A DNA stretch of 64,000 nt from an uncultured Chloroflexia bacterium (GTDB lineage Bacteria > Chloroflexota > Limnocylindria > Limnocylindrales > CSP1-4): NCBI GenBank assembly GCA_963763775.1, contig CAVXPZ010000001.1, forward strand, positions 448,001-512,000, given 5' to 3'. How positions within the stretch are numbered: position 1 is the first letter of the stretch; each line of letters begins with the position of its first letter. Below are positions 22 to 4,566 of the stretch, piece after piece. A program made the position numbers and the translations under genes. Below the pieces are notes generated by a model, which saw only the letters and a list, made by a program, of their open reading frames with translations, did not search any database and had not been told where the DNA came from.

Positions 22-2604
22 TTGTCTCAGACATTCGAGACGCAGATCGGTGGTCGCACGCTGACCATCGAGACCGGCCGGCTTGCACGCCTGGCCGGCG
101 GGTCCGTCACCGTCCGCTACGGTGACACCCTGGTCCTCGGGACCGCCAACCGGTCCGATCCGCGACCGGGCCTCGACTTCTTCCCGCTCACCGTCGAGTT
201 CGAGGAGCGCATGTACGCCGCGGGCAAGATCCCCGGCGGCTTCATCAAGCGCGAAGCCCGTGCGTCGGAGGCCGCCACCCTGGCCGCCCGCCTGACCGAC
301 CGGCCGATCCGCCCGCTCTTCCCCGAGGGCTACAAGGACGATATCCAGCTCGTCATCACGGTCCTCTCGACCGACCAGGAGAACGAGCCCGACGTGCTCG
401 GCACGACGGCCGCCTCGGCCGCGCTGAGCATCAGCGAGATCCCGTTCGGCGGCCCGGTGGGCGCCGTGCGCATCGGTCGCATCGGCGGCGAGTTCGTCGT
501 CAACCCGACCTACAGCGAGCTCGCGGAGTCCGAGCTCGACCTCATCGTCTCGGGCACCCGGGACGCGATCATGATGGTCGAGGCCGGCGCCAAGCTGCTG
601 CCCGAGGCCGTCATGGCCGAGGCGATCCTGTTCGGCCATCGCGCCCTGCAGCCGCTGATCGACATCCAGGAGGAGCTTCGCAAGGCCGTCGGCAAGGCGA
701 AGATCACCCCGTTCCTGGAGGCCGGCACGGGCACCGTGCTCGACTTCGCCAAGCAGGCGGAGGCCGGTGGCGAGTTCGTGATCGTCGACGTCGAGACCAC
801 GGGCACGGACCCGAAGATGGCCGACCTCGTCGAGATCGCCGCGGTCCGCGTCAAGGGCAACAAGATCGTCGACCGCTGGTCGACGCTCGTGAACCCGGGT
901 CGTCCGATCATCGGCAACCAGATGCACGGCATCACGGACGCGGACGTCAAGAAGGCCCCCAAGCCGGCCGACGCCGCCAAGGACGCCCTCAAGTTCATCG
1001 GTGACGCCCCGGTCGTGGGCCACAGCGTCGGCTTCGACCTCGGCTTCCTGGAGGCCGCGCTCGGTGACGGCACCCGCTTCGAGCAGGGCCGCTATCTCGA
1101 CACGCTGACGATCGCCCGAGAGGGGTACCCGGACCTCGAGAACTACAAGCTCGCGACCCTGTCGAACTTCTTCGGCATCGAGCTCGCGCAGTCGCACCGT
1201 GCCGGACCGGACGCCGAGGCGACCGCGAACCTGCTCATCTGGTTCGCGAACGACCTCCCGGGGCGCATCAAGACGCTTCGCGAGTCCATCGCGGACGCGG
1301 TCCGGGCCAATCGGACGGGCGGCGACTCCAAGGGCCTGCTCGAGGCCGCTCGCCGCGAGGCGCGCGTCTCGAAGGGCCTGTACAACCTGATCCACAAGAA
1401 GACGTGCCGCGCCCTGGCCCTCGACGAGGGCATCCGGATGGACGGTCGCGGGACCACGGAGCTTCGGCCGATCTCGGTCGAGGTCGGGTTCCTGCCGCGA
1501 GCCCACGGCTCGGGCATCTTCACCCGCGGCGAGACGCAGGTGCTCACGATCGCGACCCTCGGCTCGTCCTCGGACGTGCAGCGGATCGACACGATCAGCC
1601 CGAAGACCGAGAAGCGCTACATCCACCACTACAACTTCCCGCCCTACTCCACGGGCGAGAACAAGCCGATGCGCGGACCCAGCCGCCGCGACATCGGGCA
1701 CGGCAACCTCGCCGAGCGGGCGCTGATCCCGGTCCTCCCCGACCATGACGAGTTCCCGTACGTCATCCGGCTCGTGTCGGAGTGCATGTCGTCCAATGGC
1801 TCGACGTCGATGGCGTCGACCTGCGGCTCGACCCTGGCGCTCATGGACGCCGGCGTGCCGATCAAGGCGCCGGTCGCCGGTGCGGCCATGGGCCTCATCA
1901 GCGAGCCGGACGGCCGGTTCGTCGTCCTCACCGACATCCTCGGCAAGGAGGACTCGGTCGGCGACATGGACTTCAAGGTGACCGGTACGCGGGACGGGAT
2001 CACCGCCCTGCAGATGGACATCAAGGTCAAGGGCATCAACGAGGCCATCATCCGGAACGGGCTCGAGCAGGCGCTCGCCGCCCGCCTGGAGATCCTCGAC
2101 AAGATGACCGAGGTCCTGCCGGACGCCCGCTCCGAGATGAGCGACTTCGCGCCGCGCATCATCACGATCAAGATCAACCCCGAGAAGATCCGCGAGATCA
2201 TCGGCAAGGGCGGATCGATGATCCGCAAGATCCAGGAAGAGACCAGCACCGAGATCAACGTCGAGGACGACGGCACCGTGGAGATCGCGGCCGTCTCCGG
2301 CGAGAACTCGCGCAAGGCCATCCAGTGGATCGAGAGCCTCACCCGCGAGGTCGAGGTCGGCGCCCTCTACATGGGCAAGGTCACCCGGATCATGGGCTTC
2401 GGCGCCTTCGTCGAGATCCTGCCGGGCAAGGAAGGCCTGGTCCGTATCGGCGAGCTCGCCGACTACCACGTCCCGACCGTCGAGGACGTCGTGTCCGTCG
2501 GCGACGAGATCATGGTGGTCGTGATCGAGGTCGACCGTCAGGGTCGCGTCAACCTCTCGCGCAAGGCCGCCATGCAGCGGCATCTGGCCAAGGATCCCGC
2601 GTAG
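22..2604 (+). CDS. pnp: Polyribonucleotide nucleotidyltransferase (PNPase) with an internal DEDDh (DnaQ-like) 3'-5' exonuclease domain
   Basis: RNase PH1 ([33 protein letters not shown]), RNase PH2 ([26 protein letters not shown]), KH (IIGKGG) and S1 domains. Insert at aa ~250-413 carries DVETTG / GHSVGFD / HRAGPD. AAGGAGG RBS precedes a TTG start. Confidence 0.96.
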
Positions 2605-2710: not shown

Positions 2711-3820
2711 ATGCCCCGGATGAACCGAGCACCTCTCACCGTGGCCGTCGTGGGCGCCACCGGCGTCGTGGGGCGGACCATGATCGCCGTCCTGCACGAA
2801 CGCGGATTCCCCATGGCGGAGCTTCGGCTTCTTGCGTCGGGCCGGTCCGCGGGTCGGACCGTGTCGGTCGAGGGACGGACGCTCGAGATCGGCGAGGCGA
2901 CGCCCGAGGCGTTCGACGGCGTCGACATCGCGCTGTTCTCGGCCGGCGCGGAGATCTCCACGCGGCTCGCGCCCGAGGCGGCGAAACGCGGCGCGACGGT
3001 CATCGACAACTCCTCGGCGTGGCGCATGGATCCGCACGTGCCGCTGGTGGTCTCGCAGGTCAATCCGGACGACCTCGAGGGCCACGAGGGCATCATCGCC
3101 AACCCGAACTGCTCGACGATGCAGATGGCCCCCGTGCTGATGGCCCTGCGCGACAGCGTCGGCCTGGAGCGGGTCGTCGTCGACACGTACCAATCGGTGT
3201 CCGGCACCGGGGCCGACGCCCTCGCGGAGCTCGAGGGCCAGATCCGCGCGCACGTGGCCGGCGAGCCGAAACGGGCCGAGGTCTACCCGCACCCCATCGC
3301 GTTCAACGCGCTCCCGGAGATCGACGTGTTCCTCCCCAACGGGTACACGAAGGAGGAGTGGAAGGTCGTCACCGAGAACCGCAAGATCCTCGGTCTGCCC
3401 GAGCTGCGCATCTCGTGTACCGCGGTCCGCGTCCCGGTCTTCGTCAGCCATTCCGAGGCGATCCACGTCGAGACCCGCGAGCCCATCACGCCGGAGCGCG
3501 CCCGACGCCTGTTCACGAGCGTGCCCGGCGTCGTCGTCCAGGACGACCCCGAGACGCACGACTACCCGCTGGCCACCGATGCCGCGGGCCATGACGAGAT
3601 CTACGTCGGCCGCGTCCGGCAGGACATCTCGATGGCCGGCGACCGTGGCCTCGCGTTCTGGGTCGTCTCGGACAACCTGCGCAAGGGCGCAGCGACCAAC
3701 GCCGTCGAGCTCGCGGAGATCCTCCTCGAGCGACGCTGGGTGGAGCACGCCTCGGCCCGCGGCGCCCAGCCGTACCGGGCCCTCGGCAGCGAGGTGACGG
3801 CCGGCGGGGGAACGGCGTGA
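2711..3820 (+). CDS. asd: Aspartate-semialdehyde dehydrogenase
   Basis: [25 protein letters not shown] and [16 protein letters not shown] motifs. The start may be 2720. Confidence 0.95.
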
Positions 3821-4566
3821 CCGACGCCGAGCGCCGCGCGGCGCTCGAGGTGATCGCGGCGGAGGTCCGGGACTGCACGCGATGCCGCCTCCATACCGGC
3901 CGTACCCGCGCCGTCCCTGGTGAGGGGAACCCGTCGACCGAGGTCGTGTTCGTCGGCGAAGGCCCCGGGTTCAACGAGGACAAGCAGGGCCGGCCGTTCG
4001 TCGGCCGCGCGGGCGACCTCCTCGTCAAGCTCCTCGGATCGATCGGGTGGCGTCGCGAGGACGTGTTCATCACGAACGTCGTGAAGTGCCGGCCGCCCGA
4101 CAACCGCGACCCGGAGCCCGACGAGATCGCGGCCTGCGCGCCCTACCTGACCCGACAGCTCGAGGTCCTCGACCCGGCGGTCGTCGTGACCCTCGGCCGG
4201 TTCTCGATGGCGCGGTTCATGCCCGGCGTCCGCATCTCCCAGGCGCACGGCACCGTGCGGCCGGCCGACCCGGCGACGGGCGCCCGCGACGCCCTCGTGC
4301 TGGCCATGTACCACCCCGCGGCGGCGTTGCGGACCCCCGCCATCGAGCGCGAGAGCTTCGCCGACGCCGCCACCATCCCGAGTGTCCTGCTGGACGCGCG
4401 AGCCCGCCGGGCGGACCATTCGTCTCGACCGGTCCCGGCGACCGCCGCGACGAAGACGCCGCAGACGGCCGACGAGACCACCATCGACCGCCCTGCCCCA
4501 TCCGCGCCGCCCGTCCTCGAGCCCGTGGCGGCGCCCTCCGACACCGACCAACTCACCCTCTTCTAG
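3817..4566 (+). CDS. Family-4 uracil-DNA glycosylase (4Fe-4S) with low-complexity tail ending QLTLF
   Basis: [29 protein letters not shown] and YHPAAALR motifs. GTGA overlap with the asd stop. Confidence 0.92.

Follow-up and report, generated by a model that had tools for sequence, protein, structure and literature searches.

The window analyzed here, a stretch of 64,000 nucleotides, begins with a pnp gene on the plus strand (positions 22 to 2604) that has a TTG start and encodes 860 amino acids (aa) plus a stop. As the original prediction had it, this is a single unbroken frame without an internal stop. The rpsO (S15) gene lies directly upstream, outside the window, as seen from the end of an S15-like open reading frame (ORF) in locus L001. 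A weak DHH-family ORF, which could be a separate nanoRNase, is located between rbfA and truB, ∼3.5 kb upstream of pnp. Neither the Rfam search nor the tRNA scan gave any match in the window.

Two RNase PH cores precede the KH and S1 domains of the protein, all encoded on the plus strand, and its fold matches to PNPase chains reach E values down to 3e-76. The first core (aa 1 to 220; positions 22 to 681) includes a Pfam RNase_PH_C match at aa 144 to 208 and aligns over aa 3 to 220 with residues 18 to 235 of the solved PNPase 5yjj. The second, catalytic core (aa 470 to 700; positions 1429 to 2121), with [16 protein letters not shown] and DSVGDMDFK, has a Pfam RNase_PH match at aa 480 to 613; Pfam then places KH_1 at aa 714 to 771 (positions 2161 to 2334) and S1 at aa 777 to 848 (positions 2350 to 2565). 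Pfam RNase_PH (E = 2e-54) and RNase_PH_C each match in two stretches, as does the NCBIfam PNPase model TIGR03591 (938.2 bits versus a cutoff of 525), whose second stretch pairs aa 441 to 849 with profile positions 280 to 688; a further NCBIfam model, NF008805, scores 932.5 bits versus a cutoff of 471. The PH2 residues R555, R556, S594, S596, D644, D648, D650, and K652 are invariant in all 54 rows of our alignment A1, and by analogy with Escherichia coli PNPase we take them (RR..GHG, S-T-S, D..D.K) to form the phosphate- and metal-binding site. Read from the translation, the PH2 phosphorolytic site and the KH and S1 domains are all intact. The original prediction had raised the question of a second pnp. 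None was found in the genome that carries the window (G000), in which the other matches were S1-domain frames and an RNase PH-like gene; this genome is only 87% complete, so a gene not found there is not thereby absent. The pnp of the window is the orthologous PNPase of the usual rpsO-pnp locus and the only copy found.

Canonical PNPases (5yjj, 7ogk, 3cdi, 4aim, and 1e3h; ∼40% identity by fold search) share with this protein the order of PH1, helical linker, PH2, KH, and S1, intact catalytic and phosphate-binding residues, and the rpsO-pnp context. The difference is a DEDDh exonuclease domain of 160 to 180 aa nested in the helical domain, which would give each chain two nuclease chemistries. 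The longest solved PNPase chains among the matches have 784 residues in the sequence search and 730 in the fold search; full-length homologues of the 860-aa protein have 859 to 863. The alignment to 5yjj resumes at aa 454 to 851 (chain residues 313 to 709), so the linker measures 233 aa here versus 77 aa, a net gain of ∼156 aa. Below, f1, f2, and f4 denote the families that bear the insert and f3 and f5 the sister families without it. Comparison of our AF2 monomer model (mean pLDDT, 85.2; pTM, 0.78) with that of a canonical f5 PNPase, which has three linker helices, delimits an N-terminal remnant of the helical domain (aa 221 to 250; positions 682 to 771; helices 210 to 223 and 237 to 247) and a C-terminal part (aa 412 to 469; positions 1255 to 1428). 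The latter starts within an unbroken helix, 394 to 431, that continues the ExoIII helix and is followed by helices 436 to 447 and 451 to 469.

Between these parts lies the DEDDh domain of the DnaQ/PolC/DinG type (aa 251 to 411; positions 772 to 1254), modeled with pLDDT values of 77 to 97 and recognized by Pfam, NCBIfam, and PDB searches. Pfam RNase_T (PF00929) matches aa 253 to 405 over its entire profile (1 to 164 of 164; E = 9.5e-26; 91.7 bits versus a cutoff of 24), and the dnaq-subfamily domain model TIGR00573 scores the insert at 77 to 81 bits versus a cutoff of 71.5. ExoI is D256-V-E258 within VDVETTG (positions 787 to 795), the ExoII aspartate is D339 within GHSVGFD (positions 1036 to 1038), and ExoIII is H392-RAGP-D397 (positions 1195 to 1212). 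All motifs quoted in the original prediction are present in the translation (VDVETTG, GHSVGFD, HRAGPD, and [38 protein letters not shown]), and its central claim, a PNPase with an intact DEDDh domain in the helical linker, is borne out by Pfam, NCBIfam, these motifs, and residue conservation. G+C content is 0.67 to 0.71 along pnp, and the insert shows no compositional break.

The fusion is almost certainly not an artifact, i.e., a chimeric contig or two genes taken as one. Nothing was found in favor of an artifact. The whole 1.1-kb stretch is spanned by no single contig in four public read runs; at most 0.29 of the sampled words occurred in any run, and only short contigs of relatives were recovered. 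Near-identical DNA contigs bridge the 3′ junction in two runs (X1 record 6 and X2 record 28), and no near-identical contig bridges the 5′ junction in the runs examined. The same unbroken frame recurs in >100 genomes and metagenome contigs that were assembled independently, some of them >1 Mb, and the phylogenies of core and insert are congruent. Both weaknesses that the original prediction had foreseen, a chimeric assembly and relatives without the insert, can be set aside: relatives in f1, f2, and f4 carry it, and its presence in >100 independent genomes and contigs thereby rules out a chimera. Pieces of the insert also occur in two RNA libraries at 85 to 90% likeness, which falls short of proving transcription.

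Among sampled genomes, all of them uncultured MAGs where the fusion occurs, it is found in 99 of 100 from three families of one Chloroflexota class (Limnocylindria/Limnocylindrales in the records). Full-coverage matches in frames of ∼830 to 1,050 aa were obtained in the class sample for 44/44 f1, 6/6 f2, and 49/50 f4 genomes, and in the phylum sample the insert matched in 23/23, 4/4, and 16/16, respectively; outside these families, none of the 61 matching genomes of the phylum sample had a match starting before query residue 10. The insert is retained in all 16 f2 genomes of 1.0 to 1.4 Mb. Two sister families, f3 and f5, have a canonical PNPase of ∼740 aa. Thus, the architecture is fixed nearly throughout f1, f2, and f4 but not across the class, which answers the original question of whether it is clade-fixed. 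The same architecture is present in each of the best 120 database proteins, with insert identities of 75 to 97%. In the 150 top-scoring of 28,317 representative hits, as in the 80 loci retained of 353, no fusion from other lineages was seen. Three records named outside the Chloroflexota (L124, "Verrucomicrobiia," 2.2 kb; L089, "Sulfomarinibacteraceae," 21.9 kb; and P0009, "Saccharimonadia") have insert identities of 82 to 86% and are presumably mis-binned. Three further proteins were considered as degenerate or independent fusions: P0165 and P0180 were rejected, their divergent look arising from frameshift-like low-complexity stretches, and P0190 has no Pfam match.

D256, E258, D339, H392, and D397 are kept in all 196 distinct inserts (from 225 full-length domains), as are the flanking motif residues T259, T260, H302, H334, and D360; the five catalytic residues are also present in 50/50 fusion rows of alignment A1. 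The insert evolves faster than the cores, with 41 to 46% identity between f1 and f4 versus ∼62% for the whole protein, and in 12 pairs its dN/dS is 0.03 to 0.46 versus 0.01 to 0.24 for the PH cores. Conserved residues and dN/dS of <1 are a sign of constraint on the insert, not evidence of a substrate. From the full set of catalytic residues together with purifying selection, we infer that the insert is an active, metal-dependent, phosphate-independent 3′-5′ exonuclease.

According to PMC2723993, the PNPase helical domain is on the face opposite S1/KH and forms the lining of a pore that leads to the active site, and it is thought to affect the access of NDP and phosphate. The DEDDh heads would therefore lie off the known RNA entry path, and the domain, its last helix being continuous with a linker helix, would be held rigidly. 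Combined with published PNPase structures, the monomer models imply that the trimer should display three DEDDh heads opposite KH/S1, beside the side pore to the PH2 site. Such a position, like the faster evolution of the insert, would also suit a noncatalytic module, i.e., a structural, regulatory, or binding element that might control the passage of NDP and phosphate through the side pore or serve as a docking site for a partner or for nucleic acid. We consider this improbable; five catalytic residues and their flanking residues preserved in 196/196 inserts despite divergence to ∼41 to 46% identity are unexpected of a pseudoenzyme.

The best matches of the insert are DEDD-exonuclease/GIY-YIG proteins, DinG, and PolC; the best solved match is the PolC exonuclease 2p1j (E = 3e-21), and DinG 8zef matches at 3e-18. 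In PolC, the proofreading DEDDh domain interrupts another domain of the polymerase. PolC (2p1j and 9qpc) thus resembles the fusion in having a DEDDh domain within a larger nucleotidyl-transfer enzyme, but host enzyme and insertion site are unrelated, and "proofreading" has no obvious meaning for the fusion because PNPase is template independent. The DnaQ-exo/DinG proteins (Staphylococcus aureus DinG, 8zef; Bacillus subtilis DinG, PMC12525004) belong to the same DEDDh subfamily as the insert. Chloroflexota DinG exonuclease domains are ∼40 to 48% identical to it, and the likeness includes the C-terminal helix: similarity reaches query residue 205 (∼aa 429), through the long helix. The DinG models TIGR01407 and NF005981 give 120 to 131 bits versus cutoffs of 548 to 789, matching the exonuclease part only, which does not make the protein a DnaQ-exo/DinG member. 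Unlike DinG, the fusion protein has no helicase domain, none was found in G000 either, and the host is an RNA phosphorylase. Orn, RNase T, and REXO2 share the DEDDh catalytic motif class but are stand-alone dimers; according to PMC6521605 and PMC7261184, they finish PNPase products in other organisms. The original prediction proposed, among other roles, such an Orn/RNase T-like finisher of nanoRNA. The type of the insert speaks against it: the best 25 of 30 NCBIfam matches include neither an Orn nor an RNase T model, and no solved chain of either matches at E ≤ 1e-5, so the analogy rests on the fold class only.

Phylogenetic analysis separated 23 insert-bearing PNPase cores as one clade (support, 99) from f3 plus f5 (99), with the outgroups outside. 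The inserts likewise formed one clade (99) with the same split of f4 from f1 plus f2. Together, the two trees indicate a single old insertion followed by vertical inheritance. We envision one ancient event that would have set a DnaQ/PolC/DinG-type DEDDh domain between helices 1 and 2 of the all-alpha linker and removed a length of the old linker equal to about one helix; thereafter, the fusion would have been passed down vertically in the three families.

What the DEDDh heads act on can be approached from the gene inventory. No RNB protein (RNase II/R) was detected in G000 or in any of the 101 class genomes (f3, 0/21; f5, 0/1), and G000 yielded no PF01612 match and no PF00929 match outside pnp. 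The presence of stand-alone nucleases had been left to be checked: neither orn nor rnt was found, but the upstream DHH ORF may encode a nanoRNase. These gaps would fit a role in bulk RNA turnover only, in which the heads finish the oligoribonucleotides left by PNPase or hydrolyze structured or tailed RNA independently of phosphate, in a lineage whose other 3′ exoribonucleases are all phosphorolytic. Apart from the separate RNase PH-like gene, the PNPase query found no other 3′ exoribonuclease. An RNase J gene lies two genes downstream of pnp, and the host, with its KH and S1 domains intact, is itself an enzyme of RNA metabolism; PMC12525004 also reports the S. aureus DinG exonuclease domain to be active on RNA. 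We consider this reading possible but less likely than not. Compensation for missing RNase II/R was considered and rejected: RNB is equally absent from the sister families without the insert, and its lack therefore does not explain the insert. Moreover, the insert is not of the Orn or RNase T type, the heads would face away from KH/S1 (PMC2723993), the DHH ORF offers another candidate, and according to PMC12525004 B. subtilis DinG leaves free ssRNA uncut with Mg2+.

The distribution of DinG points in another direction. In the class sample, the DinG helicase part is present in 47/49 f3 genomes and in the single f5 genome (1/1), and the fusion shows the reverse pattern: the helicase part is found in 1/44 f1 (a different 2,041-aa frame; E = 5e-19), 0/6 f2, and 1/50 f4 genomes (a 107-aa contig-end piece), and G000 has no PF13307 or DinG helicase match. 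The f3, f5, and other Chloroflexota proteins combine RNase_T, DEAD, and Helicase_C_2 domains. Four of five high-quality genomes have one PF00929 each; it belongs to DinG in the f3 and f5 genomes and to PNPase in f4. This complementarity suggests a DNA- or R-loop-linked role as an equally good alternative to nanoRNA finishing. According to published reports, the DEDD domain of B. subtilis DinG breaks down ssDNA as well as RNA strands in hybrids (PMC12525004), B. subtilis PNPase digests R-loop RNA (PMC13251995), and the two enzymes overlap on R-loops and 3′ tails.

Our preferred explanation has a more specific version, in which the insert is, by descent or function, the DinG exonuclease: on the stem of the insert clade, the domain would have come to lie in PNPase and the helicase would have been lost, and PNPase would have taken over the task of trimming the RNA of R-loops, the 3′ ends of ssDNA, and the ends at stalled forks. 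A FastTree phylogeny (134 rows) agrees, placing the inserts as sister to a DinG-type exonuclease clade (support, 93), as does the similarity that extends through the long helix. However, in an IQ-TREE analysis of 67 rows, which omits P0165 and 67 of the 134 rows (the more remote DEDDh proteins and, where domains occur in tandem, the second or third), the insert clade falls within a polytomy, and an AU test of the grouping of inserts with the class's own DinG exonucleases (delta lnL, 10.98; P = 0.221) neither favors nor rejects it. Those DinG exonucleases score 96 to 127 bits against the insert profile and many other DEDDh proteins score higher, up to ∼160 bits; VRR-NUC, GIY-YIG, and BRCT fusions are further close relatives. 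Gain and loss fall on one branch and are therefore a single coincidence among kin, not a replicated correlation, and many Chloroflexota without a matching DEDDh protein also lack the insert. The relocation is accordingly possible rather than probable, and we are more doubtful still that it rewired genome maintenance, with the DinG exonuclease transplanted into PNPase and the helicase discarded. If it did, removing the 3′ ends of RNA (and DNA) from R-loops and stalled forks would be the dedicated task of the PNPase trimer, one face of which would offer KH/S1 and phosphorolysis and the other hydrolysis, and RNA decay and the resolution of replication conflicts would be linked in one polypeptide.

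The explanation that we prefer (probability, roughly 0.6) is that the sole orthologous PNPase became a two-chemistry nuclease through one ancient, vertically inherited DEDDh insertion. The heads would hydrolyze 3′ ends that PNPase reaches but that phosphorolysis handles poorly, with short or structured RNA ends and RNA (or ssDNA) 3′ ends of RNA:DNA hybrids as candidate substrates. The searches of G000 detected no DEDDh nuclease besides the PNPase insert, and no RNase II/R or DinG.

Few RNA enzymes are as conserved or as well studied as PNPase, and the helical linker is its least understood domain. A clade-wide PNPase with a second, apparently hydrolytic nuclease in this linker was unexpected. 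Our literature searches found no paper describing the PNPase-DEDDh architecture, in keeping with the original view that it is uncharacterized. The fusion offers a natural experiment on the role of the helical linker and the side pore, and the complementary loss of DinG, together with recent findings that DinG and PNPase of B. subtilis both attack the RNA of R-loops (PMC12525004 and PMC13251995), provides a concrete, testable hypothesis. The carriers belong to a class that appears to lack RNase II/R altogether; they are abundant uncultured soil and freshwater bacteria, and the fused enzyme is likely a major nuclease of those communities.

The pnp ORF (window 22-2604, + strand) begins with TTG and encodes an uninterrupted protein of 860 aa. 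Pfam recognizes two RNase_PH and two RNase_PH_C domains, KH (aa 714-771), S1 (aa 777-848), and, in the helical linker between the first (PH1) and second (PH2) RNase PH cores, a DEDDh exonuclease domain (RNase_T, PF00929; aa 253-405) matching the full-length profile (1-164 of 164; E, 9.5e-26). Every PNPase and DEDDh motif quoted in the original prediction is present in the translation. The NCBIfam PNPase model TIGR03591 scores 938 bits against a curated cutoff of 525, with the match split in two and the second piece restarting at aa 441. Alignment to a solved PNPase, 5yjj, pairs aa 3-220 with chain residues 18-235 and aa 454-851 with residues 313-709; the linker has therefore grown from 77 aa to 233 aa. 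The G+C content is level across the whole gene, insert included, and the end of an S15-like ribosomal protein ORF lies directly upstream. The assembly (3.3 Mb; 87% complete) yielded no second pnp, a possibility raised with the original prediction. We conclude that the window gene is the orthologous pnp.

The fusion is widespread among relatives. A query of aa 225-445 gave 1,450 matches in 5.8 billion proteins; the best 120 were all PNPases with the same inserted domain (insert identity, 75 to 97%), and full-length homologues were 859 to 863 aa long, some of them on contigs of >1 Mb. Within the same genus, 23 of 24 genomes have the fusion, the missing one being only 65% complete, as do 16/16 genomes (1.0 to 1.4 Mb) of a second family. 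Among 151 genomes of the class Limnocylindria, full-coverage matches in ∼830- to 1,050-aa frames were present in three families: f1 (44/44), f2 (6/6), and f4 (49/50, or 46/47 without three unpublished genomes). In the sister families f3 and f5, the query matched only a DEDDh core in ∼890-aa frames, and the PNPase was canonical in all four genomes checked (737- to 749-aa frames; match split into ∼5-229 and ∼458-850). Across a phylum sample of 401 genomes, full-coverage matches were confined to f1 (23/23), f2 (4/4), and f4 (16/16); another 61 genomes had matches, all of them beginning at query residue 10 or later. Scanning 1.84 billion representatives without a profile yielded 66 matches below 1e-30, essentially pieces of the same fusion and multi-DEDDh proteins. 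The record titles of carriers name Candidatus Limnocylindrales, Limnocylindria, or Chloroflexota MAGs, and none is cultured. Because the fusion recurs across genomes, the two objections anticipated in the original prediction, a chimeric assembly and relatives without the insert, both fall; the clade-fixed status that it proposed to look for holds for f1, f2, and f4 and fails for the class as a whole.

In a tree built from PNPase core columns, linker and insert excluded, 23 insert-bearing sequences formed one clade (SH-aLRT, 99) separate from f3 and f5 (99); four outgroup Chloroflexota fell outside, the outgroup itself not being monophyletic. An insert-only tree also gave one clade (99) with the same split, f4 versus f1 plus f2. 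These sequence trees fit one gain followed by vertical descent. Full-length domains collected from proteins and loci numbered 225 and comprised 196 distinct inserts; the residues D256, E258, D339, H392, and D397 were kept in 196/196, as were T259, T260, H302, H334, and D360; the PNPase site residues were invariant in 54/54 aligned rows. Nei-Gojobori dN/dS was 0.03 to 0.46 for the insert (12 close pairs), 0.01 to 0.24 for the PH cores, and 0.04 to 0.57 for the helical flanks. The insert is thus under constraint, weaker than that on the PH cores. Its identity between families is 41 to 46%, versus ∼62% for the whole protein, and even the 1.0- to 1.4-Mb genomes of f2 still carry it.

An AlphaFold2 model based on a 54-row alignment had a mean pLDDT of 85.2 (77 to 97 over the insert) and a pTM of 0.78. 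A fold search with the whole model returned only solved PNPases, and no matching solved chain exceeded 784 residues (sequence search) or 730 residues (fold search). In the model, linker helices 210-223 and 237-247 precede the DEDDh fold, from which a single helix runs from ExoIII, the third DEDDh motif (aa 394), through aa 431, with helices 436-447 and 451-469 after it; in the model of the canonical f5 PNPase, the linker comprises three helices (238-256, 261-281, and 288-310). The first PH2 strand is displaced by 159 residues relative to the f5 model, versus ∼180 residues of DinG-like similarity reaching ∼aa 429. Together with the helix positions, these lengths suggest that the DEDDh domain entered between the first two linker helices, that roughly one helix of the old linker was lost, and that the join is probably rigid, helix to helix. 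The Escherichia coli helical domain is described as lying on the ring face opposite S1/KH and lining a pore through which the active site can be reached by a second path, one believed to carry NDP and phosphate rather than to admit RNA (PMC2723993). By analogy, the trimer would present three DEDDh heads on its far face, opposite KH/S1.

The best NCBIfam matches of the insert were NF005906 (DEDD-exonuclease/GIY-YIG; 141 bits), DinG (131), dinG_rel (125), and PolC (123), with no Orn or RNase T model among the best 25 of 30 matches. The best solved chains were PolC exonuclease 2p1j (3e-21), PolC 9qpc, DinG 8zef (3e-18), and Cas2-DEDDh. The nearest non-PNPase representatives, FAN1-HTH/VRR-NUC (50%), DinG-type (48%), GIY-YIG, and BRCT fusions, are all of DNA-metabolism architecture. 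Four library proteins ranking among the closer relatives (P0152, P0157, P0166, and P0172) carry DEDDh domains in tandem, two or three per protein, fused to GIY-YIG/UVR or BRCT modules. FastTree (134 rows) placed the inserts as sister to the DinG-type exonuclease clade (support, 93), and IQ-TREE (67 rows) left their position as a polytomy. Forcing them together with the class's own DinG exonuclease domains cost 10.98 lnL and was not rejected (p-AU, 0.221); those domains score below many other DEDDh proteins against the insert profile. A DinG-like role, on ssDNA and on 3' ends of hybrid-bound RNA, is one of two about equally likely readings of the insert. One source on DinG (PMC12525004) describes the DEDD domain of the Bacillus subtilis enzyme as degrading ssDNA and the RNA strand of hybrids and as cutting free ssRNA only with Mn2+, reports activity on RNA for the Staphylococcus aureus enzyme, and lists PNPase as a further 3' exonuclease that handles 3' tails. 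B. subtilis PNPase is itself reported to digest the RNA of R-loops (PMC13251995).

In f3, f5, and other Chloroflexota, the ∼890-aa proteins combine RNase_T, DEAD, and Helicase_C_2, i.e., they are DnaQ-exo/DinG helicases. Queried with the helicase part alone, the class yielded matches in 47/49 f3 genomes (43/45 without four unpublished ones), 1/1 in f5, and 0/6 in f2. The single f1 match (1/44) is weak and lies in a 2,041-aa frame and is therefore another protein. The single f4 match (1/50) comes from the end of a contig, where an open frame of 107 aa (G075:C69:6-320) shows 49% identity to the C terminus of the DinG helicase of f5. None of the 50 f4 genomes has any other DinG-like trace, and this one could represent a real gene, a relic, or a contaminating contig. 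In the window genome, the helicase part was not found, Helicase_C_2 had no match anywhere, and PF00929 occurs only in the PNPase insert. Of five genomes 92 to 99% complete, four have a single PF00929 domain (on DinG in f3 and f5, in PNPase in two f4 genomes), and the f2 genome has two, one in PNPase and one standing alone in a 206-aa frame (G025:C2:301392-301853; 58 bits; 1.2-Mb genome). The insert was thus gained in the same lineage in which DinG is lacking. This complementary distribution is newly noticed here; because both changes fall on one branch, it counts as one coincidence between related lineages rather than as a statistical association.

The other reading is an RNA-decay helper, as in the original prediction. 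RNB, the RNase II/R domain, was not found in the window genome or in any of 101 class genomes (f3, 0/21; f5, 0/1), of which 99 were ≥90% complete. RNase II/R, the usual processive exoribonuclease that hydrolyzes RNA from the 3' end, seems to be missing from the class; its absence characterizes the class and is independent of the insert. As a decay helper, the insert would be the sole hydrolytic 3' exoribonuclease found in a class otherwise with phosphorolytic ones only. In the window genome, PF01612 (RNase D-like) was not found, and DHH had two matches; an NrnA-kind nanoRNase may be among them. One match is a 631-aa frame. The other is in a stop-free frame that lies ∼3.5 kb before pnp (G000:C1 about 444175-446052, L061:1426-3303; + strand, about 2 to 4 kb upstream of the window) and directly follows rbfA and infB; this frame has the weak N-terminal DHH match (aa 26-126; 36 bits), which lies between rbfA and truB, then full TruB (aa 373-586), with no DHHA1 domain detected. 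Either DHH and TruB are fused here, or two genes share a frame in this high-G+C DNA. The same-strand genes that follow pnp are asd, for aspartate-semialdehyde dehydrogenase (window 2711-3820), a UDG-superfamily glycosylase gene (3817-4566; 4-nt overlap with asd), and the RNase J gene (to 6247, + strand); thus, PNPase and RNase J are two genes apart.

This protein joins an intact PNPase to an intact, constrained, well-folded DEDDh domain set rigidly in its helical domain, with a single origin. The insert is predicted to be an active, metal-dependent, phosphate-independent 3'-5' exonuclease. Databases already contain the fusion proteins, labeled PNPase or "DNA polymerase III epsilon subunit family exonuclease." As the original prediction anticipated, searches of open full-text articles found no account of an exonuclease inserted in PNPase. 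We regard the PNPase-DEDDh fusion as a genuine and conserved form of a known enzyme, apparently undescribed, with candidate roles predicted from sequence; it is directly testable and of high interest for specialists in RNA decay and genome maintenance.
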